A DNA stretch of 61,496 bases. It comes from an uncultured Planctomycetota bacterium. GTDB taxonomy: Bacteria > Planctomycetota > Planctomycetia > Pirellulales > Thermoguttaceae. Of the stretch, positions 6,184 through 54,796 are shown piece after piece. The stretch's first letter is position 1, and every line of letters starts with the position of its first letter. The stretch lies in NCBI GenBank assembly GCA_902770245.1, contig CACXSS010000030.1:1-61496 (forward strand), given 5' to 3'. Position numbers and translations under genes: made by a program. Below the pieces are notes generated by a model. The model saw nothing but the letters and a program-made list of their open reading frames with translations. It did not search any database and was not told the DNA's origin.

Positions 6184-6352
6184 TTTTATGACGCGACAGC
6201 GTTCTGCTAGAACCGCGTCAGCTATTAGCTTGTATTATACAATCTCTTTTTTGAGTTGAAAGAGGGGGCATTTTTTAGTGAGTATTAATAAATTTCTATA
6301 TAATCCGTAATTTTTTCATCTTGACTAAAATTCTTACCTGAGTAAAATATAT

Positions 6353-6462
6353 AGGGAATAGGGGGCAGGGAATAGGGAATAGTAATTCGCCGATGGCGAA
6401 TTTAATACTACTCCCTACTCCCTATTCCCCATTCCCTAAACCACTCCCTATTCCCTACACCC
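6353..6462. repeat. Composite palindromic element: (GGGAATA)n, then the core hairpin AATTCGCC-GAT-GGCGAATT, then (TACTCCC/TATTCCC)n
   Basis: The left and right arrays are reverse complements of each other. The core hairpin spans 6384-6402. The whole ~110 nt can fold as one long hairpin, and it ends 13 nt before the ATG at 6476. Confidence 0.9.
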
Positions 6463-6475
6463 CCATTACGCATCC

Positions 6476-6913
6476 ATGCCACGTAAACGGATATTCCTTC
6501 GTCGCGCTACGATTTTGCACGCAGGCAGTTTGTTCCTGATGCTGATTGTATTTATATTCCTGTCAGTTCATCTAGCAAACCGAAGTCTGGAAGAACTCGT
6601 GCCGTCGGGCGGTCAGGCGACGACAACGCAAAACGGGGAATCGGTTTCAAAAGAACTCAACGCGGCGCAGGCGATGCAAATCGCGAAGATTATCGACTCC
6701 GCGCCGTACGAGAATTTACAGAACAAAACCGAGCTGGCGAAAATTGAACTGAAATACGTCAAAGCGGCTCACGATACGTTTACAATTACCCCCAGCGGCG
6801 TTATCAGCCGCCGCGGCTGGTACAATCAGAAAAAGCTCGACGCCGAGCAAGTTGAGCAGATTATTCAAATCGCGTTCCCGAAAACAGAAGAGGCAGTAGG
6901 CAATAGGCAGTAG
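6476..6913 (+). CDS. Hypothetical membrane-anchored protein with one N-terminal TM helix
   Basis: ORF of 145 aa with the hydrophobic stretch LHAGSLFLMLIVFIFLSV. The last ~7 codons and the TAG stop are supplied by a TAGGCAG heptamer array. Confidence 0.5.
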   Translation: MPRKRIFLRRATILHAGSLFLMLIVFIFLSVHLANRSLEELVPSGGQATTTQNGESVSKELNAAQAMQIAKIIDSAPYENLQNKTELAKIELKYVKAAHDTFTITPSGVISRRGWYNQKKLDAEQVEQIIQIAFPKTEEAVGNRQ

Positions 6914-6984
6914 GCAGCAGTGATTCGCCTGACGGCGAATTCAAATTTCAACTCCTCACTCCTCACTCCTCACTCCTAACTCAC
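6890..6984. repeat. Composite element: (TAGGCAG/A)n, then the core hairpin ATTCGCC-TGAC-GGCGAAT, then (ACTCCTC)n
   Basis: It has the same architecture as 6353-6462 and 13908-13993, but the two arms carry different heptamers. Confidence 0.9.
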
Positions 6985-7018: not shown

Positions 7019-10000
7019 ATGTCCGATTTGCCTTCTAACAATCGAATTAGCCGTTGGGTTCAAAATTTGTTGGACTTGACGCTTCGCAACCGTCTTCTTA
7101 ACCTCAAAGACGCGTCGTTTACCATGGAGCTGATCTGTTCAGACGCGGCGGATATAGAAGACCGTCTCGTTTCGGGATCGCTGCCGTTGAAAAACTTCAA
7201 GGAGAGCGAATACGACCCCCGTCAATATCGCTCTGCTAAAACCGATCCGGATTCCGGCGAGGTTTTAGAGGACGAGTCCGCGGAATCCGCTTCCGGACAG
7301 AAGGCGAAAAAGCTCCCGTCGACGGCGCTGTTTGTCAACCAGACGAAAAAGGAAACGGAAAGGCGTTTGCTCAAGCTGTATCGTCAAACAAAAACCGACA
7401 TCAGCGAGGGCGGCGTCAACACGCTCTTTTTGACAATCGGAACGCTGCATTGGCGTGACAAATCCCGAACGGAAAAAGAGTACCTGGCTCCGATTATTCT
7501 TTTGCCGGTCGAACTGATTCGCAATTCCGTCAAGGCGGAATTCCGCGTTCAGCGCACAGACGAGGATCCGTTCGTCAACCCGACGCTGTTGGAAGCGCTC
7601 CGCCGCGATTTCCAGCTGAAAATCACAGACCTGTCTGAACAGGTAGTCGAAGAGAAAGAGGACATCAACGTCAAAACGCTTTTGGACTCGTTTACCGAAC
7701 AGATTTCCTCCATGACGGGCTGGAAGGTCGAGCCGACCTGCTGGCTGGGTCGGTTCTCGTTTGACAAGTTTATCATGTACACGGATTTGAACAACCGCTG
7801 GAAGGAACTGGCGGCGAATCCGGTTGTCAAACAGCTTATCAACCTGACGGACGAACAGGTTCAGGAAGGGGTGGAAGCCAGTCAGGAAGGGACTATCGGC
7901 GTTGAAGTCGAGCAGAGCAACGCGTTCAACGAGCCGCCTGCCGACACCCCGCTGCCGATTGCGGATTATCTCAATTTGTTCCTGCCGATTGCCGCTGACG
8001 CGTCACAGCGTTCTGCCGTTATTGAGTCAACCAAAGGGCGCAGCTTTGTTCTCTACGGCCCTCCGGGAACGGGGAAATCGCAAACGATTACCAACTTAAT
8101 CGCCTATAACCTGGCGATGGGCAAAAAGGTTCTGTTCGTTTCCGAAAAGCGAGCGGCTTTGGAAGTCGTGTACAATCGTCTTTCCAAAATTGGGCTGGGA
8201 CCGTACTGTCTGGAACTTCACTCCAACAAGGCGGTAAAGAGAAAGGTTCTCGACCAGTTCCAGGAAGTCTACGAAATGGGCAAGAAGAACGACGTCAACG
8301 CCGAATGGACCAGAACGTGTTCAGAACTGACCGAGGCGGAACAGACGCTCGACAACTATGTCCGGCAGATTCACAAGCCGATTGTTGGAAACATCTCAGC
8401 GTACGACTGCTTCGGCTGGCTGGCGTCGCATGGGTACAGCTGGACGACCCGGCTTCCGCGTCTTTACGACGGCGCGATTGAAGAGCAGGAACTGCCGGAT
8501 TTGATTAACTCGGCGGAAGAGCTGCAGTCGCACGCCGCGGAAATGGATCCCGCTATGCTCAAAGCGCTCTCGCCGCTGAAACGGTTCAAGTGGAATCCGG
8601 AACTGGAATCCCAGATGATAGAAAGCGCATCAGCGTTTCGCCCGGCGGTTGAAGCGGTAAACCAGGTCTATAAACAGGCGGAAGAGGTCTTGTCGCTGCC
8701 GGATATCAAAGACGCGTCCGCCAAGATCACGCTGGCGTCACAGATTTTGGAGTTCCTTCAGGACTCCGGCCCGCTGCCGTCCAATCTGCTTTCCGAGGCA
8801 TTTGGAAAATTCATGCCGCTGGTTGACATGTTTGTCGAACAAGCCAGACAGTATAAAGACGCTCTTGAAGCGCTGAAGCTGTTTGACCTCAATCGGGTTC
8901 TCAATCTTCGCGTCGTTCAGCTTAAAGATCATATTGAGTACGTTAAAAAATCGTTCTTTATGTTCCGGTTTTTGAAGAAACGGAGCGTTGTCAATGAATA
9001 CGCCAGCCTCGTTCCGCCGTCTAACGGCAAACTGACGTTTGACATGCTGGAAGCGGCAGCGCCGAAAATCGCTGCGCTGCAGGAATCGTACAAACTCCTG
9101 TCGGAACATGGGGACGAAATCCTTGCCGCCGTCGGCGATTGGAACGGCGAATCCGCCAACCTGGAAGAGCTGCTTCCGTCCGTTCAGCGTGGAAAAGTTC
9201 TTCGAGAGATACTGTCCGTTGACTGCTTGACCGCCGCCGACCGCAAGCGGCTGTTCGATTTCGTCTGCGAGCAGACCGCCAATCCGAACGCAAACTTCGC
9301 CGCTTTGAATGCAGAATTCCAGTCTGCGGTTAAAGAGTACCGCATGGCAATGGAAACGTTCAACGAATCCGTTCCCACTCGCACAATGACGCCCATTGAA
9401 GCGATGGCTCTTATTGACGCTCTGCCGCAAGCCGGGCGCTCGCTGCGTCAGTTCTCGTTCTGGACGGACGTCCGAAACGACGCCAGAAGAATGCACCTCG
9501 GACCGTTGGCAAAAGCGATTGAACAGGGCAAAATCGATATTACCAAACAGTCTGCGGCAGAAGCCATGGAAGCGTCTTATCGATGGCAGCTGATTTACAA
9601 AGAGCTGGAATTCAACGACGCGTTGAACCGTTTTGACGGCGTAAGCCAAAACCGCTGCGTTGAACGTTTCTGCTCATTGGACGACAGTTTCTCGAAGCTG
9701 TCGATTCGCAAAATTCTTCTTGCTCTTTCGACGGAAGCCACCCGCGCCGTTTCGGAATCGACCACAACAGGTTCCGCTCTCCGAACGGAAGGCGACTTGC
9801 TGCGCCGGGAAATGAACAAGAAGATGCGCTTCCTGCCGATTCGTTCTCTGCTGGAACGCGCCCCGAATTTGACGCGCCGACTCAAGCCGTGTTTTCTCAT
9901 GTCGCCGCTGTCGGTTGCCCAATATCTGCCGACCAACGACGCCGGCTTTGACCTGGTCGTCTTCGACGAGGCGTCACAAATTCCAACGTGGGACGCTGTC

Positions 10001-11257
10001 GGCGTTATCGCCCGAGCGAAAAACGCGATTATCGTTGGCGACCCCAAACAGCTGCCGCCAACCGCCTTCTTCCAGCGTCAGGACGCTGTTACAGAGGAAA
10101 TAACGGAACAGTCCGAGGACGAAGTCGAAGACATGGAAAGCATTCTCGACGAGTGCATCGCCATCGGCATGGACGGCATGAAGCTCAACACCCACTACAG
10201 AAGCAAGAACGAGTCCCTCATCGCCTTTAGCAACCATTACTATTATCAGGATGAACTGGACACGTTCCCGGCGCCCGACAGGAATTTAGACAGTAGGCAA
10301 GAGGCAGTAGGCAGTAGTGAAGATTCTCGCAACTCGCAACTCGCAACTCGCAACTTTACTGGCGTTCACTTTGAATACGTACCCAACGCGGTTTACGACA
10401 AGAGCAAAACGCGAACCAACAAAGCGGAAGCGCAGCGCGTTGTCGAGATTGTTCTCGACCGCTTGAGCAATCCTAAAACGTCGGCGCGGTCGATGGGCGT
10501 TGTTGCGTTTTCCGCTCAGCAGAAAGACCTCATTGAAGACATGCTCGATCAGGCGGCGGACAGCAATCCGGAACTGGCAAACGCGATGTCTGAAGCGATG
10601 GCGGAACCGCTATTCGTGAAGAACCTGGAAAACGTTCAAGGCGACGAGCGCGACTGCATTATTTTCAGCATCGGATACGCGCCAGACGCCAGCGGGGCGT
10701 TCGCCATGAACTTCGGCCCGCTCAATAAGAGCGGCGGTCAGCGGCGTCTGAACGTTGCCGTTACCCGCGCCAAGGAAGAGATTATCGTTGTATCGTCCAT
10801 TTATGCGTCACAAATTGATTTGAACCGCACCAGCGCCGTCGGTCCGGCACATCTGAAAGCATACCTGGAATTCGCCCAGTCCGGTCGCCCAACCTGGGCA
10901 GACGCCTCCAGCGCCGGTTCGGATTCCTCCGCAGACAAAAACCGCTTTATCCAGTGCGTTGCCGATTTCCTCCGGGAAAATGGCTACGATGTAGACTGCG
11001 GCGTCGGCTTTTCAGACTACAAGATCGACATTGCCGTTGTCGACCCGAAGAATCCCAATCGCTATTGTCTGGCTGTCGAATGCGACGGCGCAGTTTACAA
11101 GAACGCGAAGATCGCTCGCGATCGAGAAAAATCTCGACCCTCCATGCTGGAAGGACTTGGCTGGAAACATTGCCGCGTCTGGTCTACGGAATGGTTTACC
11201 GATCCCGAAAAATCCAAAAACGATTTGCTAAAATGCCTTAAAGGATCGGGGAAATAG
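7019..11257 (+). CDS. DUF4011-type SF1 (Upf1/DNA2-like) helicase fused to a C-terminal Vsr/DUF559-like restriction-endonuclease-fold domain. The architecture is Hhe-like.
   Basis: 1412-aa ORF. Motifs: Walker A VLYGPPGTGKSQT, LVVFDEASQI, IIVGDPKQLPPT, VQGDERDCIIFS, RRLNVAVTRAKEEIIVV. The C-terminus reads DYKIDIAVVDP..CLAVECDGAVYKNAKIARDREKSRPSMLEGLGWKHCRVWSTEWF. Confidence 0.8.
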   Translation: MSDLPSNNRISRWVQNLLDLTLRNRLLNLKDASFTMELICSDAADIEDRLVSGSLPLKNFKESEYDPRQYRSAKTDPDSGEVLEDESAESASGQKAKKLPSTALFVNQTKKETERRLLKLYRQTKTDISEGGVNTLFLTIGTLHWRDKSRTEKEYLAPIILLPVELIRNSVKAEFRVQRTDEDPFVNPTLLEALRRDFQLKITDLSEQVVEEKEDINVKTLLDSFTEQISSMTGWKVEPTCWLGRFSFDKFIMYTDLNNRWKELAANPVVKQLINLTDEQVQEGVEASQEGTIGVEVEQSNAFNEPPADTPLPIADYLNLFLPIAADASQRSAVIESTKGRSFVLYGPPGTGKSQTITNLIAYNLAMGKKVLFVSEKRAALEVVYNRLSKIGLGPYCLELHSNKAVKRKVLDQFQEVYEMGKKNDVNAEWTRTCSELTEAEQTLDNYVRQIHKPIVGNISAYDCFGWLASHGYSWTTRLPRLYDGAIEEQELPDLINSAEELQSHAAEMDPAMLKALSPLKRFKWNPELESQMIESASAFRPAVEAVNQVYKQAEEVLSLPDIKDASAKITLASQILEFLQDSGPLPSNLLSEAFGKFMPLVDMFVEQARQYKDALEALKLFDLNRVLNLRVVQLKDHIEYVKKSFFMFRFLKKRSVVNEYASLVPPSNGKLTFDMLEAAAPKIAALQESYKLLSEHGDEILAAVGDWNGESANLEELLPSVQRGKVLREILSVDCLTAADRKRLFDFVCEQTANPNANFAALNAEFQSAVKEYRMAMETFNESVPTRTMTPIEAMALIDALPQAGRSLRQFSFWTDVRNDARRMHLGPLAKAIEQGKIDITKQSAAEAMEASYRWQLIYKELEFNDALNRFDGVSQNRCVERFCSLDDSFSKLSIRKILLALSTEATRAVSESTTTGSALRTEGDLLRREMNKKMRFLPIRSLLERAPNLTRRLKPCFLMSPLSVAQYLPTNDAGFDLVVFDEASQIPTWDAVGVIARAKNAIIVGDPKQLPPTAFFQRQDAVTEEITEQSEDEVEDMESILDECIAIGMDGMKLNTHYRSKNESLIAFSNHYYYQDELDTFPAPDRNLDSRQEAVGSSEDSRNSQLATRNFTGVHFEYVPNAVYDKSKTRTNKAEAQRVVEIVLDRLSNPKTSARSMGVVAFSAQQKDLIEDMLDQAADSNPELANAMSEAMAEPLFVKNLENVQGDERDCIIFSIGYAPDASGAFAMNFGPLNKSGGQRRLNVAVTRAKEEIIVVSSIYASQIDLNRTSAVGPAHLKAYLEFAQSGRPTWADASSAGSDSSADKNRFIQCVADFLRENGYDVDCGVGFSDYKIDIAVVDPKNPNRYCLAVECDGAVYKNAKIARDREKSRPSMLEGLGWKHCRVWSTEWFTDPEKSKNDLLKCLKGSGK
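10289..10355. repeat. Repeat element inside the helicase CDS: (TAGGCAG-type) x3, then gtgaagatt, then (CTCGCAA) x4
   Basis: It encodes ..[23 protein letters not shown].. in-frame. A near-identical copy is intergenic at 19436-19522. Confidence 0.85.
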
Positions 11258-12998: not shown

Positions 12999-13020
12999 GA
13001 GAGTAGGAGGTAAAAAGGTA

Positions 13021-13078
13021 AATTAGCAATTAGCAATTTTCAATTAGCAATGAGAGCTTCAATAAGAACTCATTGCTA
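13021..13078. repeat. (AATTAGC)n array ending in a 10-bp-stem hairpin, in the 5' leader of the DUF1559 gene
   Basis: The array reads aattagcaattagcaattttcaattagcaatgag. The hairpin pairs tagcaatgag (13045-13054) with ctcattgcta (13069-13078). Confidence 0.85.
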
Positions 13079-13202
13079 ACTACTAAATATAATTATAACA
13101 AGTTTAAGTAAAAAATCCAGTAGGATTTAAACTTCTTGAGAAAAATTTTTTGAATGAGAAACTGGGCAATATAAAGAGACGGCAGAGAGTGGTTAAGATT
13201 AC

Positions 13203-13235
13203 CCTACTGTCTATTGCCTACTGCCTACTGCCTAA
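13203..13235. repeat. Heptamer array (CCTACTG/CCTATTG) x4 abutting and overlapping the lpxB stop codon
   Basis: The sequence reads cctactgtctattgcctactgcctactgcctaa. Confidence 0.9.
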
Positions 13236-14512
13236 TAATACATGTTCTTTAAAATAATCTCTGCCGCCTTTTGAGCGGCTCCGGGACGGCAGACGTGGCT
13301 TTTGAGTTCTTCCAGCTTTTCTTTTTTGCGTTCGTATTCTTCCGGGTCGGAAATCCAGGAAAGGATATTGTCAGCGATAGCTTCGGACGCGTCTCGAGCC
13401 GTCAGGAATTCCGGGAAAAGCGCTTCGCGAGGATTGGGCGCGATTGGCAAGTCCGGCGCTTGAGCGGGAACGGCGCCGTATTCCAGCAAATTGACCAGCG
13501 TGATGTATTTCACTTTTCTGAAAATGCTTTGCAAAAACATTCCCAGCCAGCAGGTTTTGTAAAGAATCACTGTCGGGATTTTGTAGTACAGCAATTCCAA
13601 AGAAACGGAGCCGGAAACCGCCATAACAGCGTCCGACGACGCCATAATCTTTGACGCCGCGCCCACTTCAATAACGACGTCGTCCAGTCTGGCTTTGGCG
13701 GCTTTGGGAGCGATTATTCCCCAATGTTCGTCTTTAAATGCGGCAACCCGAAACTGAATCGGCGTAGCCGAAACCTGGGCAAATTGTTCCTGAATGATTC
13801 GCGCCGCCTTAAGCATGGTCGTAATATTCTGCTCGACTTCCTGAGTGCGGGAGCCGGGAAAAATGCCTATTTGGATAGTTTTTTTCTTCGAATCAATGGG
13901 AGACGAGTTAGGAGTGAGGAGTGAGGAGTGAGGAGTTTTTAAATTCGCCTCCGGCGAATTACTATTCCCTATTCCCTGTTCCCTATTCCCTAGCTCAAAC
14001 TTCTCCGTTTCGTCAAAAAACGGGTGCCCAACGTAGATACATCTGCAGCCCTGATCCTGAAACCATTGCGTTTCAAACGGCAAACCGGACAGAATGCAAT
14101 CCACCCATTTCCGCATTTTTCGGACTCGCCATTGCGCCCAGCCCCAAATCTGCGGCGGGGAATAATAATAGACGGGAATGCCGGCTTTATGCGCTCGTTT
14201 GGCTATATGCCAGTTGAAACCAGGATAGTCAATCAGAACGACGGCGTTCGGTTTTTCGATTTCAAAATATTCTTCCGCCTGAGCGGCAAGATTGAAAAAC
14301 GTTCCAATATTCCACAAAACGCGACCAAACCACATCACCGCCAGCGACGTCAGGTCGAACATCAGTTCCGCGCCCGCTTCCTGCATTTTGGGTCCGCCAA
14401 ACCCAACGCATTGCAGTTCGCCTTCGCCTTGATAGGCGTTTTTGAGAGCGCGAATCAGATTGGCTCCATGAACGTCCCCGCTGGGTTCTCCAACAGAAAA
14501 GAATATTTTCAT
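13232..14512 (-). CDS. lpxB: Lipid-A-disaccharide synthase
   Basis: The ORF 13232..14680 was trimmed to M57 (MKIFFSVGEPSGDVHGANLIRAL, the canonical LpxB N-terminus). Further matches are GFGGPKM, VLIDYPGFN, YYSPPQIWGW, VGHPF and FPGSR. It carries an in-frame repeat element (see 13908-13993). Confidence 0.85.
   Translation of the reverse strand: MKIFFSVGEPSGDVHGANLIRALKNAYQGEGELQCVGFGGPKMQEAGAELMFDLTSLAVMWFGRVLWNIGTFFNLAAQAEEYFEIEKPNAVVLIDYPGFNWHIAKRAHKAGIPVYYYSPPQIWGWAQWRVRKMRKWVDCILSGLPFETQWFQDQGCRCIYVGHPFFDETEKFELGNREQGIGNSNSPEANLKTPHSSLLTPNSSPIDSKKKTIQIGIFPGSRTQEVEQNITTMLKAARIIQEQFAQVSATPIQFRVAAFKDEHWGIIAPKAAKARLDDVVIEVGAASKIMASSDAVMAVSGSVSLELLYYKIPTVILYKTCWLGMFLQSIFRKVKYITLVNLLEYGAVPAQAPDLPIAPNPREALFPEFLTARDASEAIADNILSWISDPEEYERKKEKLEELKSHVCRPGAAQKAAEIILKNMYY
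13908..13993. repeat. Complete composite palindromic element inside the lpxB CDS: (GGAGTGA)n, then AATTCGCC-TCC-GGCGAATT, then (CTATTCC)n
   Basis: It has the same architecture as the intergenic copies at 6353-6462 and 6890-6984. It is translated as ..LGNREQGIGNSNSPEANLKTPHSSLLTPNS.. Confidence 0.9.
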
Positions 14513-15760
14513 CGTATAAATGCCTCTACTAACGCTATGTCCTGACTGGGAAGAACCGTTCGCATATCCAAAATCAGGACGTCTTCTGCCGCAGTTCCCA
14601 AAACGGCGGGCGCCCCGCGAGTCAATCGCTTGCTTAATTCCGCTGGCGTCATTCCTTTCGGTTTGACGACAACCCGACACGTTGGCAGTTTAATCGACAG
14701 CCACTGGTTATCTATCGTTGACTGCTCCACGATTTCCGTTTGAGCCGAGTCGACCCAATCGGAAACGGCGATTTGCTTTTGAATTCGCTGCGCTCGGTTG
14801 GCAAGATTGGCTTCGGAAAAATGCAGTAAAGTCCGATCGGCACTGATCAATAAACGCTTTTCTCCCTAAAATCATTCCGCAAACGGGACCGCCAAACAAC
14901 GACCCGCTTCGCATAATAACAACGTCCGCCCCATCTGTCAAGGCAGAAGACGCGCTGACGGTATCTTTGCCGCCAATCAGACCTGACAAACCGATGTCGA
15001 CAATAAGCGGAATCTTGCGAAGCTTGGCGATTTTGGACATCTCCGCAATAGTCGGCTGAATGCGTCCGGACTCTTTTTCCGCGGCGGAGTAAATATACAA
15101 AAAAGCTCGAACGTTTTCTGGAAGGGCGGAAAAATCGTCAACCGTCGTCCGGTTGACGCTTCCCACTTCCAAAATCGAACAGCCCGATTCCTGAAGAATA
15201 TCGACAATCCGGCTGCCGGACGGAAGTTCAAACAGCTGACCTCGACTTATCGCAACAGGAGCCGTTTTGTCTTGTTCCGCTCGTTTATTCAAGGCGTGAA
15301 GAACCAAAAACCAGCCGGCAGTCGCCGAATTGACCGGCATGACGCTTTCTGCGCCGGCAAGCTGATTGATCAGGGATTCTACGCTTCTAAGAAGCTGAGC
15401 GTTGTCCCATTTCCCAACCGGACGCCCCATGGCGGCGTAGTCTTTAGCCAAATCCGTCATGACGTTAATCGCCTGACTTGCCAGCGGCGCCGATCCCAAT
15501 TCCGGAGGAAACAGACGTCCGGTCGCGTTTATCGTCGGAACAAGACGCGCCGGCTCGTTTTGAAGCAGCTTGTCTGCAATTCGATCCGCAACTTCCGTTA
15601 CCGTCGGCAAAGACATGTCCAAAGCCGATTCTTTGGTTTGGAGCGCCAGTTCGCCCAAAACCAGAAGAGCGGTCGAAACAACTTCACCCCGGTTGAGTTT
15701 GGTTATCAGCCCCTTTACCAGAGGAACTTCAAGGATTTCGTTTATGGTTGGAAGATTCAT
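14509..15760 (-). pseudogene. SelA-like (L-seryl-tRNA(Sec) selenium transferase family) gene split by a +1 frameshift near 14838-14850
   Basis: ORF 14708..15802 (true start probably MNLPTINEIL at 15760) carries the N-terminal and PLP-fold part. ORF 14509..14850 in the +1 frame carries a SelA-like C-terminal domain (..TPAELSKRLTRGAPAVLGTAAEDVLILDMRTV..). The second frame opens only just after the ILG codons. This could be a real pseudogene or a sequencing indel. Confidence 0.6.
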
Positions 15761-15762
15761 GG

Positions 15763-15811
15763 CAATTAGTAATGAGTAATGAGTAATGAGTAATTGACGC
15801 AAAGCGCCTCA
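15763..15811. repeat. Leader element: (TAATGAG)n array plus the conserved box TTGACGCAAAGCGCCTCA, abutting the SelA-like start codon
   Basis: The same box-plus-array occurs at 59759-59812 (guaA leader), 15942-15997 (tsaD leader, mirrored) and 58150-58195. Confidence 0.85.
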
Positions 15812-17678: not shown

Positions 17679-19439
17679 CAGCGTAATTTTGATAAAAACT
17701 GGCAGATTCCTTTACACGATTCCGGCAAAGTTGAGCGGATGTCAAGACAGCTTAACATCCCAGTCGCTCTGGCTCAGCTGTTGTGCGCTCGAAAAATGAC
17801 GCCCGAACAGGGGCGCCGCTATCTGGCGTCGTCTTTTTCTGAGGTCGAACCGCCAACAGCGCTTTATGGCTGCGAAAAGGCGGCGGAACTGATTCTTCAA
17901 GGAATTGACAACAACGAATCGTTCGTTATTTACGGCGACTACGACGTTGACGGGATGTCCGCAACGGTTGTTCTGTATAGAATTATCACCGCCTTGGGCG
18001 GGAAAGTTAACTACTATATTCCCAGCCGACACGACGACGGATACGGTCTGCACAATCATACTGTTGAGAACCTGGCTCAACAGGGATACAACTGGCTCGT
18101 TACCGTAGACTGCGGCATTCGATCTGTGGAAGAAGTCGAGTTGGCAAACCGTTTGGGTCTGAAAACGATTGTAACTGACCATCACCAGCCCCTGGAATCC
18201 GGGGAATTGCCCCCTGCTCTGGCGGTCGTTCATCCGGCGATCCCTCTCAACGGCAAATGCACGCCGGAATTGAGCGGGTCGGCGGTCGCGTTCAAACTGG
18301 CGTGGCAGTTATGCTGTGCGAAAATGAAAAGCTCAAACGTTGGGGAGAGGCTTCGTAACATTCTTCTGGAACTGCTGGGCATAGCGACGCTGGGAATCGT
18401 GGCGGACGTTGTGCCTCTGACTGGAGACAACCGAATTCTTACCGCGAACGGTTTGAAATATTTGCGGAATCGCGCCCCGATTGGCATTTTGGCTCTTTTG
18501 CAGGGATTGAGTCTTCATGAGCAGATTTTAAGCGCCGAGAACATCTCCTATAAAATCGCCCCAACGCTCAACGCCGCCGGACGGGTCGGCGATCCCAACA
18601 AGGCGGTGGAATTGCTCTTGTCGATTCAGCAGCCAAAAGCGCAAAGCCTTGTATCCCAGTTGCTTGAATGGAATTTTAAACGGAAAACTCTGGAACAGGA
18701 GATTTCTCGTCAGGCGGAAGAACTGGTCAAGGAACAATTTCAGTCAGAGGACGATAATCCGTTTCTGGTTTTAGCGGGACAGGACTGGCACGAGGGCGTT
18801 CTGGGAATTGTCGCTTCCAGAATGGTCGAAAAATTTCATCGTCCAACGATTATCCTTTCCATTCCAAATTCTGACGATTCGGAAAAGCCCTGCTCCGGCT
18901 CCGCCCGATCTGTAGAAGACTTTGACGTCGCCGCTGCGCTGGCGCATTGTTCAGACATTCTGACGCGTCATGGCGGTCACAAAATGGCGGCGGGGCTGTC
19001 TGTCAAGAAAAACGATATCAACGCCTTTCGTCAAAAAATCAACGAGTACGCAAAAGAACATAAAGCAGAATTGAACACAGACGCCCCGGAGTACGTTGAC
19101 GCTGAAATACCGCTCTCTGCGATTACAATGGAAACGCTGCTGGCAATGGAATGGATGGAGCCGTTTGGCAAAGAGAACCCGCGCCCAACGTTCATGGCAA
19201 CCAACGTCGGGCTTTACTGCGCTCCGCGGCTGTTAAACAGCTCCGGCGGAGTTCAGTTTGTGTTTTATCAGAATGGCGTAACACTCAACGGCGTTGCGTT
19301 TCAACACCCGTCTTGGGCAAGCGATTTCGTCAATACAGGCAGTCAGGCGTTTGACATCGTCTTTCAGCCCAGTATCAACCGCTTTGCCGGTCGAACCAGC
19401 GTTCAGCTTAAAGTGCTCGACTGGCAAAGCAGAGATTAG
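17589..19439 (+). CDS. recJ: Single-stranded-DNA-specific exonuclease RecJ (exact start uncertain)
   Basis: DHH/DHHA1 features are YGDYDVDGMSA, VTVDCG, IVTDHH and GGHKMAAG. The first ~30 codons of the listed ORF are repeat-encoded. The first ATG is at 17739 (MSRQLNIP), but KNWQIPL upstream looks RecJ-like. Confidence 0.85.
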   Translation: MRSEDESKRPTGAVVGRRAVARTGSGASPLQRNFDKNWQIPLHDSGKVERMSRQLNIPVALAQLLCARKMTPEQGRRYLASSFSEVEPPTALYGCEKAAELILQGIDNNESFVIYGDYDVDGMSATVVLYRIITALGGKVNYYIPSRHDDGYGLHNHTVENLAQQGYNWLVTVDCGIRSVEEVELANRLGLKTIVTDHHQPLESGELPPALAVVHPAIPLNGKCTPELSGSAVAFKLAWQLCCAKMKSSNVGERLRNILLELLGIATLGIVADVVPLTGDNRILTANGLKYLRNRAPIGILALLQGLSLHEQILSAENISYKIAPTLNAAGRVGDPNKAVELLLSIQQPKAQSLVSQLLEWNFKRKTLEQEISRQAEELVKEQFQSEDDNPFLVLAGQDWHEGVLGIVASRMVEKFHRPTIILSIPNSDDSEKPCSGSARSVEDFDVAAALAHCSDILTRHGGHKMAAGLSVKKNDINAFRQKINEYAKEHKAELNTDAPEYVDAEIPLSAITMETLLAMEWMEPFGKENPRPTFMATNVGLYCAPRLLNSSGGVQFVFYQNGVTLNGVAFQHPSWASDFVNTGSQAFDIVFQPSINRFAGRTSVQLKVLDWQSRD

Positions 19440-19522
19440 GCAGCAGGCAAGAGGCAGTAGGCAGTAGTGAAGATTTTTTGTTTCTCGCAACTCGCAACTC
19501 GCAACTCGCCTCTCGCAACTCA
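19436..19522. repeat. Element (TAGGCAG-type)n, then gtgaagatt(ttttgttt), then (CTCGCAA)n, exactly filling the recJ/dhaK convergent gap
   Basis: It is the twin of the intragenic copy at 10289-10355. The recJ TAG stop is part of the first heptamer. Confidence 0.9.
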
Positions 19523-22365: not shown

Positions 22366-23340
22366 TTATTCTCCGAGGTCAATTTTCAAAGCCAGACTTC
22401 GGTTCTCGTTATACCATTGAATCGTCTTTTCGACGCCTTTTTCAATCGACGTTTTAGGCGACCATTTAAGGACTTTTCTGGCGTGGTCAATGTTGGCGGA
22501 CGTTCGTTTGACGTCAGCGCGATGGGCGGGACGATAATCGATTATCGCCTCTTTGCCCAAAAGACGTCCGATAAGAGCAATTAAATCGTTCAAAACGACT
22601 ACATTGTCTCCGCCGAGATTGAAGATATCGTATCCGACCTTCTTTTCCGCCAGCTGCGTTCCGCGGGCGATGTCGTCAACGTAGGTAAAATCGCGTTCTT
22701 GAGTCCCGTCGCCGAAAAGAATTATCGGCTCGTTCTGATCTATGTGACGAATAAACCGGAAGATGCTCATGTCCGGGCGTCCGGCGGGTCCGTAGACGGT
22801 AAAGTATCGCAGAATAGAGACGTCAATTCCGTGCAAGTGATGGTACGAATGCGCCATCGCTTCCGCAGCCTTTTTGGATGCTGCGTAGGGGGACAGCGGT
22901 TTGTCGGTGCAATCCGTTTCAGAGAACTTTCCCGTCGGGCAGTTACCATACAGGCTGGACGTTGACGCCATGATGTATTTTGAAACGTCAAATTGACGGC
23001 AGGCGTCGAGAAGGTTAAGCGATCCGAGCGTGTTGGAATGATAATAAATCCACGGGTTGACAACGCTGGTTCTTACGCCGGCGCGCGCGGCAAGATTATA
23101 AATTGCCTGCAGATTCTTACAGGATTTAACCTGCTTAAAAACAAAGTCTTTATCTGCGATGTCGCCTTTTTTGAATCGAAAGTTGGGAAACGTCTTGAGG
23201 TTTTTGAGCCGATAATTCTTCAGCCGGCAATCGTAGGCGTCGTTGAGAACGTCAATTCCTAAAACGTCGTTTCCCTGTTCGAGCAGGTTAAGAGTTAATT
23301 TCGAGGCGATAAATCCGGCGCAGCCTGTTACGATATACAT
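22366..23340 (-). CDS. NAD-dependent nucleotide-sugar epimerase/dehydratase (SDR family)
   Basis: Matches are the Rossmann motif VTGCAGFIASKL, the catalytic YAASKKAAE, and the overall UDP-glucuronate/glucose 4-epimerase-like length. Confidence 0.8.
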   Translation of the reverse strand: MYIVTGCAGFIASKLTLNLLEQGNDVLGIDVLNDAYDCRLKNYRLKNLKTFPNFRFKKGDIADKDFVFKQVKSCKNLQAIYNLAARAGVRTSVVNPWIYYHSNTLGSLNLLDACRQFDVSKYIMASTSSLYGNCPTGKFSETDCTDKPLSPYAASKKAAEAMAHSYHHLHGIDVSILRYFTVYGPAGRPDMSIFRFIRHIDQNEPIILFGDGTQERDFTYVDDIARGTQLAEKKVGYDIFNLGGDNVVVLNDLIALIGRLLGKEAIIDYRPAHRADVKRTSANIDHARKVLKWSPKTSIEKGVEKTIQWYNENRSLALKIDLGE

Positions 23341-23379
23341 AAACGCTTATTCTATTCTTTAATGTCTGTTCTCAACCCT

Positions 23380-24558
23380 CTAATTAAGCGGAGCGATATT
23401 CATCAAAATGGGCGGATCAGCGTCCGCAACGGATTCCGGATTGACGGGAATGGCGCTTGGCGAAACATTTTCGGCAGGTCGAACCAAAGACGTTTGAACA
23501 ACCGGAATGACGTTATATTCAGACGGAATTTGGCGCACTGGCGACGCGGGAGACGTTTTCGCAACAACAGGATTTCCCGTTGCCAGGCTGGCAACTTCAT
23601 GATATCCCAACGAGCAGAAATCCGATTCTGTCATAGCAGATCTGGTATTTTTGACTGTTACCACTCTGCTGTTATCGAAACAGTTTTTCAGTTCATGGGG
23701 AACGTTCTGATTCTCCGACAGTCCTGGCAGAGTTTGAGAATCGAGCGGAGACGGAGCGTCTGTCGGGTACGCCTGGTTTGATCCTGAATTTGGCTGAACG
23801 TTCTGAGCTGAGCCGGGCGCGGTTGGAGATGAAAATTCGGATTCAAATCGATTCATGTCGAGACTTCCCGGCAGGAACGACCCTTGAGTGGGCGTATACG
23901 CCTTCGCCTCGCTTTCGGAAATTTCCGTCTGATATTGAACCGGCGCAATAGCGTTGTTATTTTTAGTTGAGTCAGACGCGACCGCTGGAGAGACAGGCGC
24001 CTGAATGGGTTCTGAATTTGGAACGGGCGGCAGATCTGGAACGGGCGGCAGATCCATTGGTCCTGACGTTCCATTTGACGCAACCGTTTGAGAAGAAGGA
24101 GAAGTCATCGGCGAGATATCCATCGGCGAGGCGTTTTCCTCTTTATAGGCGACCGGGGCTGCGTTTTTAGATGCATCCGCATTTGCCTGAGCCGTCATTT
24201 GTTCTACAGCAGCGTAGTTCTGCGCCGGATTGACTGGCGGTTGATTGAGCTGATCCAAAGACTCCGTATATTGAGGACCGTTTGGGTTAGAGTATCCGCT
24301 ATCAGCCAAGCGGCGTTCTCCCAGAGCTATGGTCGCTTCCGGTTTGGCTTTATTGGCTGGAGGGATTATGTCGCCGTCTGTTTGAACAGCCTGGTGGTTT
24401 TCTTTATACGTTGCCAACTGTTCGGTTTTTTCCATGTCTTTTCGACCAAAAGGCCATTTCGGGCCGCCTGTACTGCGACAGCCAACAAGCGAAACGACGA
24501 CTAATAACGCCGCAAGCGCCCATCGGAGCTGAAATCTGTTCATAATGCTAAATTCCAT
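23380..24558 (-). CDS. Hypothetical lipoprotein, Pro/Ser/Asn/Gln-rich and low complexity
   Basis: The signal peptide carries a lipobox (ALLVVVSLVGC). An internal DLPPVPDLPPVP repeat is present. Confidence 0.55.
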   Translation of the reverse strand: MEFSIMNRFQLRWALAALLVVVSLVGCRSTGGPKWPFGRKDMEKTEQLATYKENHQAVQTDGDIIPPANKAKPEATIALGERRLADSGYSNPNGPQYTESLDQLNQPPVNPAQNYAAVEQMTAQANADASKNAAPVAYKEENASPMDISPMTSPSSQTVASNGTSGPMDLPPVPDLPPVPNSEPIQAPVSPAVASDSTKNNNAIAPVQYQTEISESEAKAYTPTQGSFLPGSLDMNRFESEFSSPTAPGSAQNVQPNSGSNQAYPTDAPSPLDSQTLPGLSENQNVPHELKNCFDNSRVVTVKNTRSAMTESDFCSLGYHEVASLATGNPVVAKTSPASPVRQIPSEYNVIPVVQTSLVRPAENVSPSAIPVNPESVADADPPILMNIAPLN

Positions 24559-27321: not shown

Positions 27322-27338
27322 GGTTTTGGGGTAAATTG

Positions 27339-43964: not shown

Positions 43965-46325
43965 TTATCCAACGTAGAGCTTTAAACGAGGGCTGTCTGA
44001 TATGCCTTCATCTTCTTCTGTATCAGGTTGTGTAACAGCGGCGGACGCTTCAGCGGCAATTAACGCAAATCGTCGGGCGGAATCCATGTTGTCGAAGCGC
44101 CCTTGAACCAGACGGCGAAGCGAGGACGCCTGGTCGTCCGGTTGCGAGTCGTCAGACGAGACTTTTGTTTCGTCTTTATAAGATTCATCTGCGTTGTTTC
44201 TCGTCTCGACGCTTGCCAGCAGTGCGTTGATTTGCTCTTGAGTGAATCGGCTTTCCCAGTCAGACAGAGCCTTGAGCGGGAAATAGTTTCGATAATAATG
44301 ATATCGCAGATAAAAGACCAGCGGAAATCCGGTTCCGGTGAATTCCGGTTCCGACCATTGCCCGTCCGAATTCTGACGGTCAATGAGATAACGGATTCCG
44401 TTTACAACTGATTCAGAGGCGCCTTCTCCGCTGGCGATAAGCCCCAGAAGCGCCCAGGCGGTTTGCGACGCCGTCGAATTTCCGGTTCCTTTGAGCAACG
44501 GGTTGCGATAGCTGTCGAGCGTCTCGCCCCAGCCGCCGTCTGAATGTTGATGGGCTTTGAGCCAGTTGACGCCTGCCGCGACCATCGGGTCTTTCGGGTC
44601 AACGCCGACCGCCGCCAAGCCGTTGAGCGCCTCGCCGGTTCCGTAAATGTAGTTCGCTCCCCAGCGACCAAACCAGGAACCGTCCGGCAGCTGTTCTTTA
44701 CGACAGAACTCCACTGCGCGGTCAATCTGAGTTGCGAGTTGCGAGTTGCGAGTTGCATCTTCCCGACATGAACAGCGATATCCTAACGCTCCCAACGCTT
44801 CCAGAATTCGCCCGGTGATGTCGGTCGTGCTGGGGTCAATCATGGCGTTGTGATCGGCAAACGGGACATGACAAAGGAACTGACGGTTGTTGTTTTTGTC
44901 GAACGACGCCCAGCCGCCGTCTTTGTTCTGCATTCCCATCAGCCACGTTACGCAGCGGTCAATAGCGGCTTGCAGATTTTCCGGCGACGTGAGATTGTCA
45001 GAATTGGCTTTGCCTTCGATGGCAGAGCCGGTTTGGGTTGCCGTTCTCAAAACGTCGCTCAATTCGTGTATTGCCATAATCGACATGGCGGAATCGTCGC
45101 AGTCAGGATAGAAATCGTTGTGGTATTCAAAAGCCCAGCCGCCCGGCGGCGTTTTCGGATTGACCTGCGCCCAGTCGCCTTTCCATGTATGCTGTCTGGG
45201 CAAGAGCCATTCCAACGCCTTGCGAACGGACTGAGAAGCCGGAGAATCCCCTTCGATTCTAATTCCGCCCGCCGCTAATGCGCGAAGCGTCAAAACGGTG
45301 TCCCAAACGGGAGATAAACACGGAACGCCGTGAGCGGACGGGTTCCCGTTGGCGTCAATCCCGTCGTCGACGATGAGTTTATGGAATTCGTTGAGAAAAT
45401 ACTGGACTTCCGGCGTGTCGTCGGCGTATCCTTGCGCTTTCATGGCGACCAGCCCCCAAATAATGGGCGGCTGAATTGCGCCGGGACCGTCGCTGTTTTT
45501 GCAATGTTCCAGCAGCCAATCGTTCATCTTCTTAATCGCCCGTTTGCGAATAAATCCTTTTCCAAACCAGCGCTGATATTTTTTCAAAAAGACGTCTGTT
45601 CCGCGGAAGAACCGCTCCCAGGAGAAGAACCCCGGAGCTTTTTGAATCTGCCCCGGTTTGACAACTTTCGGAGCAGACAGCGGGGGCCACTGTTCCGGCG
45701 CGTTGTGAAACAGTTCCCGAATTCCCTTTTCAATGGGCAGAGGTCGAACCGGACGCAAAGCCGAGACAATCGCCAGCGGCGCAATAATCGTTCTCGTCCA
45801 GGAACTGACGGCGTACATGTTAATCGGAAACCATTTAGGAAGAAGAATCAACTCCGGCGGCACGGCTGGGCATTGTTCATACGGAACCTGTCCCAGAATA
45901 GCCAGATAAAACCGGGTAAAGCTGTTGACGTTATCGGCGCCGCCCATTCTCATAACAGCTTCCCGCGCCCGCTGCATGTACGGCGCATTGAGCGGATGGC
46001 CTGTCAGCTTGAGCGCGAAATACGCTTTGACCGTGTTGGTAATCGAATCTTCTCCGCCGGTAAACATGGGCCATCCGCCGGTTTCAGATTGCGTCAAGAG
46101 GAGATGATTCGCCAGCTTCTTTGCCAGAGGGGAGTCTTCCTGCCCTAAAAACGTGAGAAGAATTACGGCTTCGCCTTCCAGCAGCGCGTCGCCTTCCAGC
46201 TCCGCTCTCCAATGTCCGTCTTCGTTTTGATGAGAAAAAAAGAAATCCTGACAGCGGCGAATCGCTTCATGCAGTTCCACCGCAGACGGCATGGCAACCG
46301 GTTTCAATTCGAATGTTTCGTTCAT
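43965..46325 (-). CDS. shc: Squalene-hopene cyclase with a ~110-aa acidic/Ser-rich C-terminal extension
   Basis: The ORF was trimmed to MNETFELKP. QW-type repeats are present (DGHWRAE, GGWPMF, DGGWASF, DGSWFGRWG, DGGWGE, DGQWSE), along with a DCDDSAM (DxDD-like) motif. A (GTTGCGA) array insertion is also present. Confidence 0.85.
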   Translation of the reverse strand: MNETFELKPVAMPSAVELHEAIRRCQDFFFSHQNEDGHWRAELEGDALLEGEAVILLTFLGQEDSPLAKKLANHLLLTQSETGGWPMFTGGEDSITNTVKAYFALKLTGHPLNAPYMQRAREAVMRMGGADNVNSFTRFYLAILGQVPYEQCPAVPPELILLPKWFPINMYAVSSWTRTIIAPLAIVSALRPVRPLPIEKGIRELFHNAPEQWPPLSAPKVVKPGQIQKAPGFFSWERFFRGTDVFLKKYQRWFGKGFIRKRAIKKMNDWLLEHCKNSDGPGAIQPPIIWGLVAMKAQGYADDTPEVQYFLNEFHKLIVDDGIDANGNPSAHGVPCLSPVWDTVLTLRALAAGGIRIEGDSPASQSVRKALEWLLPRQHTWKGDWAQVNPKTPPGGWAFEYHNDFYPDCDDSAMSIMAIHELSDVLRTATQTGSAIEGKANSDNLTSPENLQAAIDRCVTWLMGMQNKDGGWASFDKNNNRQFLCHVPFADHNAMIDPSTTDITGRILEALGALGYRCSCREDATRNSQLATQIDRAVEFCRKEQLPDGSWFGRWGANYIYGTGEALNGLAAVGVDPKDPMVAAGVNWLKAHQHSDGGWGETLDSYRNPLLKGTGNSTASQTAWALLGLIASGEGASESVVNGIRYLIDRQNSDGQWSEPEFTGTGFPLVFYLRYHYYRNYFPLKALSDWESRFTQEQINALLASVETRNNADESYKDETKVSSDDSQPDDQASSLRRLVQGRFDNMDSARRFALIAAEASAAVTQPDTEEDEGISDSPRLKLYVG
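44729..44757. repeat. (GAGTTGC) x4 heptamer array inside the shc CDS
   Basis: It is translated on the minus strand as ..[11 protein letters not shown].. Confidence 0.9.
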
Positions 46326-46720
46326 AGTATCAATCGACGTCAAAGGCTTTTTTAACGCCGGTTTCTCAGAATTCCGTTCTGATACGTATCCAGCCACAGC
46401 CGTTTGACAAATATATTAATCCGTACAATATTTTAAATCGATATAACCAGTTTATCTATTATGTCAATTCATACAACCCCTAATCAAGTATTTTGCTCTG
46501 AATTTTTGAAATTTTTCAAAGTCTCTATCGTTAAAACCACTCGTATTTTATCTATTTTAAAAAATTTGCTTGCTTCTATGTGTAATATTGACTATTTACG
46601 TAAAATTTCCTCTTGATAGATTACCCAAAATACTGTATTATAAGAATGAATTGTTTTTGTTTGAACAGCGTCCTGTTTCAGACGCATAATAAAACGAATA
46701 ATTATAAATTCTAATTTCCA

Positions 46721-53836: not shown

Positions 53837-54796
53837 TTAATGATTCCTTTCCAAAACGTAGTCTGCCAGATTCCGCAGCAGTTCCGCGTCCTGACCAAAA
53901 GAACTCAGCGCGTCTTTCGCCTTTTGAGTCAGTTCCGCCGCATACGCCTGTGACGCCTCAACGCCCAGAAGCCCCGGATACGTCATTTTCCCCTTGGCGC
54001 TGTCTTTATGAGTGCGCTTTCCCATCTGCTCGTCCGTCGCGGTAACGTCGAGTAAATCGTCCGTAACCTGGAACAGCAGCCCAAGGGCGGCGCCGTACGC
54101 TTTGAGGCTTTCAATCTGTTCAGCAGTCGCATTTGCGATGGTCGCGCCGATAATCAGCGAAACGCGAATCATCGCCCCGGTTTTAAGGCGATGAATGTTC
54201 TCTAAGATCGATAACGCTTCTGCGTCAGTTTGTGAGTTGCGAGTTGCGAGTTGCGAGTTGCGAGTTGAGGAACTCGCTTCGCTCGTCTGATTCTCTTTTT
54301 CTCCTTGAATGTCCAGCGTCTGACCGGCGACCATGCCGCAGGCTCCTGCGGCGTCTGACAAGGCGGAAACGCATTGAATTGCAGCCTCTGCCGGGTGAAC
54401 GTCTTTTGCCAAAACCTCAAACGCCAGAGCCTGCAAAGCGTCAGCGGCAAGAATAGCGGTCGCTTCGTCGAACTGCTTATGGCACGTTGGACGTCCGCGG
54501 CGCAAATCGTCGTCGTCCATGGCAGGCAAGTCGTCGTGAATGAGCGAATAGGCGTGAATCATCTCGACAGCGCACGCGCCGGGCAGAGCTTTGGTCATCT
54601 CGCCGCCGCACGCCTGACACGCCAAAAGAGCTAACATCGGGCGAATGCGTTTGCCGGGGGCGAGAAGGGAATAGTCCATCGCCTGACGGAGCAAATCCGG
54701 ACATCGTTCGTCCAGCTTGAGATACTCTCTAAGCTGCGAATTGACCAGTTCGACGTTCGTCTTAAAAAAATCGGTTAGCACTGAGTTTTGGGACAT
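53837..54796 (-). CDS. ispA: Polyprenyl diphosphate synthase (farnesyl/geranylgeranyl diphosphate synthase)
   Basis: Matches are [17 protein letters not shown] (first DDxxD), FQVTDDLLD (second) and KTGAMI. It directly abuts the dxs start. A heptamer-array insertion is present. Confidence 0.85.
54232..54277. repeat. (GAGTTGC) x5 heptamer array plus a short hairpin inside the ispA CDS
   Basis: It is translated as ..[16 protein letters not shown].. The hairpin gcgagtt-gagg-aactcgc sits at the 3' side. Confidence 0.9.

Follow-up and report, generated by a model that had tools for sequence, protein, structure and literature searches.

What is a dispersed palindromic repeat doing inside the reading frame of a lipid A synthesis gene: is it a tolerated passenger, a switch or a useful peptide? 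The question is raised by a 61,496-nt stretch of DNA from an uncultured planctomycete of the Thermoguttaceae (NCBI GenBank assembly GCA_902770245.1, contig CACXSS010000030.1, positions 1 to 61,496 of the forward strand; this whole stretch is called the window below), in which an initial annotation, made from the letters alone, had noticed a composite of (GGAGTGA)n, a hairpin and (CTATTCC)n within lpxB. Here we describe this element, follow it through other loci (L numbers) and LpxB proteins (P numbers), and weigh the explanations for it. We think it probable that the element is a repeat akin to the repetitive extragenic palindromes (REPs) and the Rickettsia palindromic elements (RPEs), tolerated in a permissive linker of LpxB and reshuffled by recombination between copies.

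The element and its host gene

The features at issue are the following, with the basis of each in brackets.

13232..14512, minus strand: lpxB, coding sequence of lipid-A-disaccharide synthase (family GT19), 426 amino acids (aa) (list of open reading frames, Pfam, PDB, AlphaFold2 (AF2))
13904..13990, minus strand: element-encoded segment, 29 codons, 87 nt, residues G175-S203, GNREQGIGNSNSPEANLKTPHSSLLTPNS (sequence, translation, AF2)
13962..13992, minus strand: upstream arm in the reading direction, (GGGAATA)x4.4 on the coding strand, (CTATTCC)x4.4 on the plus strand (Tandem Repeats Finder (TRF))
13942..13960, no strand: central hairpin AATTCGCC-TCC-GGCGAATT, 8-bp stem and three-nucleotide loop, a REP-like module (pattern search)
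13905..13936, minus strand: downstream arm in the reading direction, (ACTCCTC)x4.6 on the coding strand, (GGAGTGA)x4.6 on the plus strand (TRF)
13976..13978, minus strand: codon 179, CAG (Gln), where the consensus unit would give TAG; substitution at 13978 (sequence)

The host gene is an ordinary lpxB. Its containing open reading frame (ORF) spans 13232..14680 on the minus strand, and the actual start of LpxB is the MKIFFSVGEPSGD methionine at 14512, with a 4-nt overlap between the start of lpxB and the end of selA that relatives share. The protein matches Pfam PF02684 (E 1e-65) and, in two stretches, Escherichia coli LpxB (PDB 5w8s; E 1e-32), and both the family profile, which runs across the two domains, and the two-domain GT-B fold identify it as LpxB. 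The ORF is intact, and all 72 residues that are invariant among 118 aligned LpxBs are present. The identical 426-aa protein (P0193) is recorded on 15 contigs, in NCBI and ENA, and its 90% cluster has 12 further full-length members from assemblies in the same two databases; the nearest LpxBs belong to Thermoguttaceae metagenome-assembled genomes (MAGs) from goat, water buffalo and other ruminant gut samples.

Sequence and TRF both bear out the composite inside the uninterrupted LpxB frame. Its extent had been given as 13908-13993 (86 nt), which is off by a few bases, the codon span being 13904-13990 (87 nt). Read in the direction of the gene, the element runs from (GGGAATA)x4 through the hairpin to (ACTCCTC)x4, and it encodes the peptide LGNREQGIGNSNSPEANLKTPHSSLLTPNS between the flanking motifs GHPFFDE and IGIFPGSR; LpxB residues 178-208 include the tryptic peptides EQGIGNSNSPEANLK and TPHSSLLTPNSSPIDSK. 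The upstream arm is of the type NNNNA[G/A]T, a type that has TAG in all three frames, and the downstream arm is stop-free in all three coding-strand frames and encodes TPHSSLLTPNS. Two exact copies of the hairpin pattern occur in the window, against 0.03 expected, together with a third copy at 6922-6941 that has a 4-nt loop, and the lpxB-type hairpin also sits between other arm types in L038, L051 and L059.

An extra segment in the interdomain linker

Is the segment an addition to LpxB? Counted from GHPFFDE to PGSRT inclusive, the linker has 62 aa in the window and 35 aa in L009, whose LpxB is 72% identical and has no array at this position; the L009 locus has its arrays elsewhere. Exclusive of both motifs, the window linker has 51 aa, against a median of 26 aa (interquartile range 26-26, full range 21 to 109 aa) in 107 aligned Planctomycetota LpxBs, which comprise the 72%-identical P0014 and more distant sequences. 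Aligning orthologues, as the initial annotation had proposed, therefore finds the segment missing in L009 and in these 107 proteins. The annotation had also put the E. coli linker at about 20 aa shorter, and the alignment with 5w8s (query 167-215 to chain 170-194) makes the difference 24 aa.

The AF2 model of LpxB, built on the 118-sequence alignment, has a mean local confidence (pLDDT) of 90.2 and a predicted template-modelling score (pTM) of 0.87, and its best structural matches are E. coli LpxB entries. Its only stretch with pLDDT<50 is residues 177-206, which lie between a helix (166-175) and a strand (213-218) and connect two Rossmann-like domains. To the question raised at the outset, whether the segment falls in a surface or interdomain loop, the model answers with an interdomain position, where the element appears to encode a floppy, disordered 29-residue connection.

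Other Pirellulales LpxBs have linkers of 51-109 aa with different in-frame palindromes (P0030, P0047, P0050, P0051, P0055, P0058, P0060, P0063, P0029, P0082 and P0087). For example, the linker in L071 (10685-10843) has a 26-nt inverted repeat encoding GDSPIF...KNATVP, of which P0063 has two copies, and that in L070 (10514-10708) has CCCTCTCCC-GGA-GGGAGAGGG, encoding PLPEGEG. No further copies of these palindromes were found within their 21-kb loci; their inverted-repeat structure and recurring peptides suggest that they may be repeat elements too. The LpxB linker seems to be a recurrent landing site.

A family of heptamer arrays

Where does such an element come from? The window holds 22 arrays of period 7, against 0.1 in dinucleotide-preserving shuffles, and none of the other periods tested between 4 and 12 is comparably enriched (period 9, for example, gives 3 versus 0.0). 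Array length is sharply peaked, with 20 of 27 TRF rows at 3.9-4.7 copies, or about 31 nt. The units vary among arrays (AGGCAGT, AGGGAAT, AGGGAGT, GAGGAGT, TGCGAGT, AATTAGT and others) and nearly all have the form NNNNA[G/A]T. Neighbouring arrays are convergent, plus then minus, and the centre between them measures from 8 to about 200 nt. Close-clade loci (L001-L012) hold 2-12 arrays per 10 kb; in Planctomycetota further away, other Thermoguttaceae among them (L013-L021), the figure is about 0. We searched the literature on heptamer or palindromic repeats in Planctomycetes/Thermoguttaceae and met with no account of this family.

At least 15 different units coexist, and many of them, such as AATTAGT and TTGCGAG, cannot form G-quadruplexes. 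A G-quadruplex explanation for the family is ruled out, as most units have no G-tracts.

Many arrays lie within a few bases of gene ends, and convergent pairs enclose whole intergenic regions, for example at 13021/13208, 15762/15959 and 30425/30655. One of them touches lpxB itself:

13203..13237, minus strand: (TAGGCAG)n array starting at the lpxB stop codon, the TAG at 13232-13234 being part of its first unit (TRF)

The recJ stop codon (TAG, 19437-19439) is likewise the first unit of a (TAGGCAG)n array, at 19437-19467. The element within lpxB resembles a miniature intergenic region, with an arm of the after-gene type, a hairpin and an arm of the before-gene type.

Mosaic copies and turnover between relatives

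Two intergenic members of the family bear directly on the origin of the lpxB copy:

6351..6462, no strand: intergenic member of the same architecture, with left arm and hairpin in common with the lpxB copy (alignment)
6891..6983, no strand: intergenic member of the same architecture, with right arm in common with the lpxB copy (alignment)

That these copies share the architecture of the one in lpxB had been claimed from the outset, and they do align with it half by half. In the lpxB copy, a mosaic, parts of the two intergenic copies (at 6345 and 6880) are joined: the left arm and hairpin match 6345-6402, and over 31 nt, (ACTCCTC)3ACTCCTAACTC, the right arm is the same letter for letter as 6951-6982, with the variant last unit (ACTCCTAACTC) included. 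The arm at 13962..13992 is identical to the left arm at 6351-6382 and to those of the lpxB copies in L005 and L068.

Within the clade defined by at least 84% LpxB identity, every member has an element at the lpxB site, and its type varies. Type A combines a GGGAATA arm, the AATTCGCC hairpin and an ACTCCTC or TACTCCC arm (window, L033, L005, L068 and P0194); L033, an independent metagenome contig, has the same element as the window and the same CAG. Type B combines a GGCAGTA arm, in which CAGTAG has become CAAGAG, with a short centre and a CTCGCAA arm (L001, L003, L007 and L008). The lpxB of L006 has the left arm of type B only, and a long-centre form occurs in L010 and P0005. In the N- and C-terminal halves of lpxB, the window and L001 are 97 and 96% identical in DNA, yet their element types differ; L005 groups with L007 and L008 (95-97 and 93-95%) but has the element type of the window. 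Element type therefore contradicts phylogeny.

Variants also recur across loci. A 28-nt type-B variant, AGGCAAGAGGCAGTAGGCAGTAGTGAAG, is found in the lpxB of L003 and L006-L008, in a helicase gene (window 10295, and L001) and at intergenic sites (window 19445 and L006:7088), and complex variants have evidently been copied between loci. Over the roughly 20 kb common to the window and L001, about half of the orthologous intergenic element sites differ in arrays or centres.

At the intergenic sites themselves, L001:984-1143 has four nested arrays in 160 nt between two genes, where the window (23340-23391) has a 40-nt spacer and no array, a presence/absence polymorphism between genomes about 97% identical. 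Upstream of selA, the arrays at window 15762-15796 and L001:8611-8640 differ by the same base in successive units (ACTCATT versus ACGCATT/ACGAATT), which points to concerted change within the array.

The stop codon and the reading frame

How does a GGGAATA array stay open? Three 7-nt units span all three frames, so an array of at least three units has TAG once per frame, and codon 179 is the sole TAG of the consensus array that falls in the lpxB reading frame. There the variant unit at 13976-13982 reads CTGTTCC on the plus strand, or GGGAACA on the coding strand, and gives CAG, exactly as first noted. The stop is indeed avoided in this copy, but the change is not private to it: CAG stands at the same position in L033, L068/P0191, P0194 and L063, that is, in lpxB alleles of at least three lineages and in a copy within an unrelated ORF (L063). 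Because it is so distributed, the CAG probably came with an ORF-compatible variant of the element and was not made in place in this genome. Other replacements of the stop are GAG in L010, TGG in L032/L057 and CAAGAG in type B.

One frame is kept in all 11 lpxB alleles for which there is DNA (window, L001, L003, L005-L008, L010, L033, L067 and L068), across linkers of about 138-225 nt, and this conservation argues that the element is translated. Additionally, the left arm is stop-free in the NSNSP hairpin frame in 8 of 9 ORF-embedded copies versus 1 of 6 intergenic ones (one-sided Fisher test by hand, p about 0.01, a comparison that is partly circular because residence in an ORF presupposes openness).

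The TAG is kept in two assemblies. In L005 (MAG JAZUMX01, contig JAZUMX010000663.1; 7186-7374) a type A element with the TAG intact reads GNRE*GIGNS, and in L067 (ERZ27256900 k141_1397597; 1150-1258) a type-B-like copy reads GSRQ*AVGSS; in both, the downstream frame is open and lpxB has no defect besides the TAG. Compared with the element of its sister allele L068, that of L005 has two changes and no others, each back to the consensus unit, which we read as the signature of array homogenisation. The two TAG alleles may be null alleles, population variants or somehow rescued alleles. Reassignment of TAG in L005 is ruled out, since TAG terminates other long ORFs there.

Elements in other genes

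Is lpxB a special case? A metagenome scan for AGTAATTCGCCNNNGGCGAATT gave 45 matches, 14 of them (13 distinct) flanked by heptamer arrays, and 8 of the 13 distinct hairpin-bearing copies lie well inside long ORFs, in frame and all read in the same direction. They lie in lpxB, in a gene for dihydroorotate dehydrogenase, where the element divides the Pfam match into two parts, in genes for a DinG-like helicase and a radical-SAM enzyme, and in four ORFs of 276-831 aa that have no annotation. In the window, four genes have in-frame arrays, the three besides lpxB being these:

10287-10357, plus strand: complete type-B element, (AGGCAGT)n with CAAGAG, GTGAAGAT, (CTCGCAA)n, in frame in ORF 7019..11257
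44726-44758, minus strand: single (CTCGCAA)n array, 10 residues, in frame in squalene-hopene cyclase (ORF 43965..46397)
54229-54270, minus strand: single (CTCGCAA)n array, 13 residues, in frame in polyprenyl synthase (ORF 53837..54796)

ORF 7019..11257 encodes a 1412-aa DUF4011/AAA_11/AAA_12 superfamily 1 (SF1) helicase with a 23-residue insert inside its AAA_12 domain, the same as in L001. The polyprenyl synthase array lies in a loop that is 22 aa longer than in PDB 7my6. Additionally, an 831-aa ORF with no Pfam match (L059:1608-4100, minus strand) has two tandem in-frame elements, 47 residues...LATRNSQ.

Comparison with known repeat systems

In Rickettsia, palindromic repeats lying in frame within genes are a classic observation (Ogata et al. 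2000, 2002, as summarised in PMC10969869), and the initial annotation had likened the lpxB element to them. As regards behaviour, the likeness stands: both are dispersed palindromic repeats found between genes and in frame in unrelated housekeeping genes, with a large intragenic fraction, and both add a short peptide at fold-compatible positions. The many in-frame copies in unrelated genes (8 of 13 in long ORFs) and the place of the insert in the AF2 model are what one would see of an RPE. Membership of the RPE families does not stand: judged by construction and host, the element is set apart both by its type and by phylum. RPEs have a conserved consensus of about 100-150 bp and a conserved peptide (PMC10969869), whereas here there are 7-nt arrays with a copy-specific unit, an interchangeable centre and a resident copy that is replaced between close relatives; Rickettsia is an obligate intracellular alphaproteobacterium, and the present host is a free-living gut planctomycete.

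Intragenic REPs tagged with GTAG/CGTC code for 20-30 aa and turn up often in genes for helicases and repair (Di Nocera et al. 2013; PMC3733652). The same study reports them for Opitutus terrae, of the PVC (Planctomycetes-Verrucomicrobia-Chlamydiae) superphylum, which also includes Planctomycetes, and reports REP families, though not intragenic ones, in Rhodopirellula baltica, itself a planctomycete; GTAG-tagged REPs are thought to be moved by REP-associated tyrosine transposases (RAYTs) (PMC3733652). The present element resembles REPs, which are palindromes of 20-40 bp with a stem of 6-9 bp, a short loop and a GTAG-like tag at one end, and like them it is mostly intergenic near ORF 3' ends and often forms inverted dimers. 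Here the stem has 8 bp and the loop 3-4 nt, and the tag is GTAG-T with GGCAGTA arms and ATAG-T with GGGAATA arms (GTAG-T before the hairpin in L038, L051, L059 and L066, ATAG-T in the window copy). Tandem heptamer arrays, however, are not described for REPs (PMC3733652), whose tag is a single unpaired motif, whereas here it is part of the last repeated 7-nt unit.

The arrays have their own precedents. Heptameric simple sequence repeats (SSRs), (GGGANTN)n in Xanthomonas and GGGGA(C/T)T in Nostoc, have a modal length of four units and form 70-75 convergent inverted pairs per genome; they are 89-93% intergenic, near the upstream ORF, with intragenic fractions of 7-11% (Xanthomonas) and 32% (Nostoc), and they vary extensively at the same site between close relatives, and the mechanism behind them is unexplained (Rehm et al. 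2015; PMC4692102). The present family shares the 7-nt unit, the length of about four units, the convergent pairing, the mostly intergenic position near ORF 3' ends and the variability between close relatives, and GGGAATA here is close to GGGAATC there. Most units lack GGG (AGGCAGT, TGCGAGT, AATTAGT, GAGGAGT); the GGGAATA arm of the lpxB copy fits the G-quadruplex unit, and the family taken together does not. The analysis of those SSRs (PMC4692102) did not extend to translation in frame, avoidance of stops or hairpin centres. The work on them centres on one G-rich unit and on G-quadruplexes, whereas at least 15 units occur here.

The nearest architectural parallel to a hairpin within heptamer arrays, nested insertions included, may be the small dispersed repeats (SDRs) of Nostoc, which Elhai and colleagues reportedly described in 2008 as small hairpin-forming mobile repeats nested in tandem heptamers. 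SDRs differ in being cyanobacterial and in their sequences, and to our knowledge they are not described as residing in frame in essential genes. Intragenic REPs and heptamer repeats having already been described, the finding is no new category.

A proposed history of the element

We hypothesize that the elements are a dispersed, modular, REP/RPE-like repeat, built of two convergent arrays of about 31 nt around an interchangeable centre, which would be copied around the genome and which fills the spaces between genes in a clade of ruminant-gut Thermoguttaceae. The copying may be the work of a Y1/RAYT-type transposase, a candidate suggested by analogy. On this account the lpxB copy would have arrived once the 72%-identical lineage had split off but before the clade with at least 84% identity radiated. 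A copy that lands in a gene would last only if it sits in a permissive loop, runs in the one frame that can be open and is of a variant that removes the stop: of the six frames through the element only one can open, and only if its single in-frame TAG is replaced, so that genic survivors would be ORF-compatible variants (CAG, GAG, TGG or CAAGAG). The ribosome would read the element as a polar, disordered 29-residue loop that leaves the two Rossmann-like domains undisturbed, so that it could persist as tolerated selfish or neutral DNA; we infer that the encoded peptide is neutral. The resident copy would meanwhile keep recombining, by ectopic recombination or gene conversion and by homogenisation within arrays, so that mosaic structure, a mismatch between type and phylogeny, and occasional regeneration of the TAG would be expected.

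Several observations pull the other way. There is no transposase among the Pfam matches of the 32 larger ORFs in the window, and for the lpxB site we found neither a target-site duplication nor an empty and a filled allele that pair cleanly; we infer insertion from L009, a relative without the element that is rather distant, at 72% identity. The length mode of about 31 nt, the strict convergent pairing and the array starts at stop codons are unexplained by a purely selfish or neutral model. An in-frame TAG followed by an open frame, as in L005 and L067, is odd for a supposedly essential gene. Finally, the window, L005, L006 and L010 share an 18-nt flank specific to lpxB that L001, L003, L007 and L008 lack, a pattern that also fits exchange of whole linker alleles between strains instead of ectopic conversion. 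As for MITEs (miniature transposable elements bounded by inverted repeats), the arms are convergent but often non-complementary, no junction duplication is evident and no parent insertion sequence was seen.

Alternative explanations

Could the element be functional? It might switch or regulate lipid A synthesis, through TAG toggling, gain and loss of units, or an RNA-level hairpin (a pause, an antisense structure or internal termination). We regard this as rather improbable, though it is the best of the alternatives. Two independent TAG alleles keep their downstream frame, the two changes between L005 and L068 restore the consensus, and the layout is that of a miniature intergenic region. The antisense strand of the window copy folds far better than shuffles (-35.7 kcal/mol, z -4.4), owing to G-U pairs. 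Heptanucleotide repeats mediate phase variation in Haemophilus influenzae, for example at the hmw promoters. They also figure among the repeat types examined as phase-variation mediators in that species in PMC2651432. A phase-variable locus, however, should show frameshifts by unit number, which are absent from all 11 alleles, the two OFF-like alleles being TAG alleles; TAG to sense requires a point mutation and is poorly reversible, no restart codon follows the TAG in L005 or L067, and the prevalent allele of the L005 lineage is intact (P0191, 8 contigs). At the RNA level, the sense-strand fold is unremarkable (-25.8 kcal/mol, z -1.6 versus shuffles), and a terminator and promoter scan of 13000-15000 gave nothing at the element, whose hairpin is without a T-run. 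The same elements, moreover, sit in many unrelated housekeeping genes. An Rfam scan of the whole window returned one tRNA only, with the element covered by no known RNA family. Among six lpxB alleles compared, the antisense strand is the more structured in every one, although the differences in type B are small; weaker sense-strand structure would favour translation, which in so small a sample is suggestive only. The intergenic copies follow no consistent rule of strand asymmetry.

Less probable still is an origin without insertion, in which slippage during replication would have built up the heptamer arrays on the spot, as an ordinary simple sequence repeat, in a linker that was variable from the start. 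Heptameric repeats are over-represented in many bacteria, for which polymerase slippage has been proposed (PMC4692102), the LpxB linker does vary from 21 to 109 aa in other Planctomycetota, and orthologous arrays may differ by the same substitution in every unit, as upstream of selA. Slippage would not, however, supply a hairpin that is not itself repetitive, nor variant units shared letter for letter with copies at other loci, nor two different convergent arm units like those of the intergenic copies, and array length peaks sharply at about 4.4 units where slippage would give a broad distribution.

What of the peptide itself? A selected flexible linker or interaction loop, altering LpxB activity, membrane association or dimerisation, would account for an insert that is kept throughout a clade with about 15% lpxB DNA divergence and always in frame. 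Against it, there is no conservation of the peptide, those of types A, B and C (11 to about 50 aa) being unrelated, the model predicts disorder in the segment, and the same peptides occur in unrelated proteins, so we hold an adaptive role to be very unlikely. Last, an assembly artefact, or an lpxB that is a dead pseudogene, can practically be dismissed: one MAG breaks exactly at the linker (L011/L012) and the neighbouring selA has a 110-nt frameshifting deletion in the window, but the identical protein stands on 15 contigs in two databases, L033 reproduces the element independently, and the intact ORF, the 72 conserved invariant residues and the frame kept in 11 alleles speak against a dead gene.

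What the element may mean

Translated palindromes in core genes were long a Rickettsia curiosity, to which REPs in a few taxa were later added; here such in-frame elements, presumably translated, are frequent in a gut planctomycete and are of different construction. With 11 DNA alleles and further protein-only variants at one enzyme site, lpxB offers a natural experiment that sets homogenisation against the integrity of a reading frame and shows which protein positions tolerate 10-50 extra residues. Additionally, a heptamer rule of about four units in a third phylum, beside Xanthomonas and the cyanobacteria, argues for a shared mechanism. The 31-nt length rule, the diversity of units, replacement at fixed sites and the TAG alleles are the features that would repay further work.

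A bolder combination, which we consider unlikely as a whole, would have heptamer cassettes form an actively exchanged modular class, of which an ORF-compatible sub-lineage colonises protein linkers, with lpxB existing in ON, OFF or split form or with its TAG rescued, and with the LpxB linker as a landing pad. If it were true, two 31-nt arrays set by some ruler, with a swappable centre, would replace one another even between 97%-identical genomes; free-living Planctomycetota would have an RPE-like system of protein-coding palindromes; and homogenisation would recurrently regenerate stops, leaving lpxB, and with it lipid A synthesis, polymorphic between ON, OFF and split states, unless the TAG alleles are rescued by read-through or by ribosomal bypass of the hairpin.

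There is also a practical side. In one MAG (JAZRTH01), contigs L011 and L012 stop exactly at the lpxB linker, with LpxB residues 1-183 and 210-426, respectively, so the element evidently breaks short-read assemblies, and such elements create spurious or extended ORFs in the annotation of planctomycete MAGs.

Neighbouring genes and minor observations

The window is otherwise ordinary chromosome, encoding recJ, tsaD, selA, dxs, guaA, squalene-hopene cyclase and others. Its selA lacks, at about 14829, 110 nt that are present in L001, and is split into two frames (ORFs 14708..15802 and 14509..14850, both on the minus strand); GATTT(T)GC microhomology borders the deletion, and the gene is probably a pseudogene or the product of an assembly deletion. 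At 27338-27382, two copies of GGTTAGGG (period 8) are followed by (AGCTCCT)x3.4, a telomere-like G-rich motif beside an atypical heptamer array.

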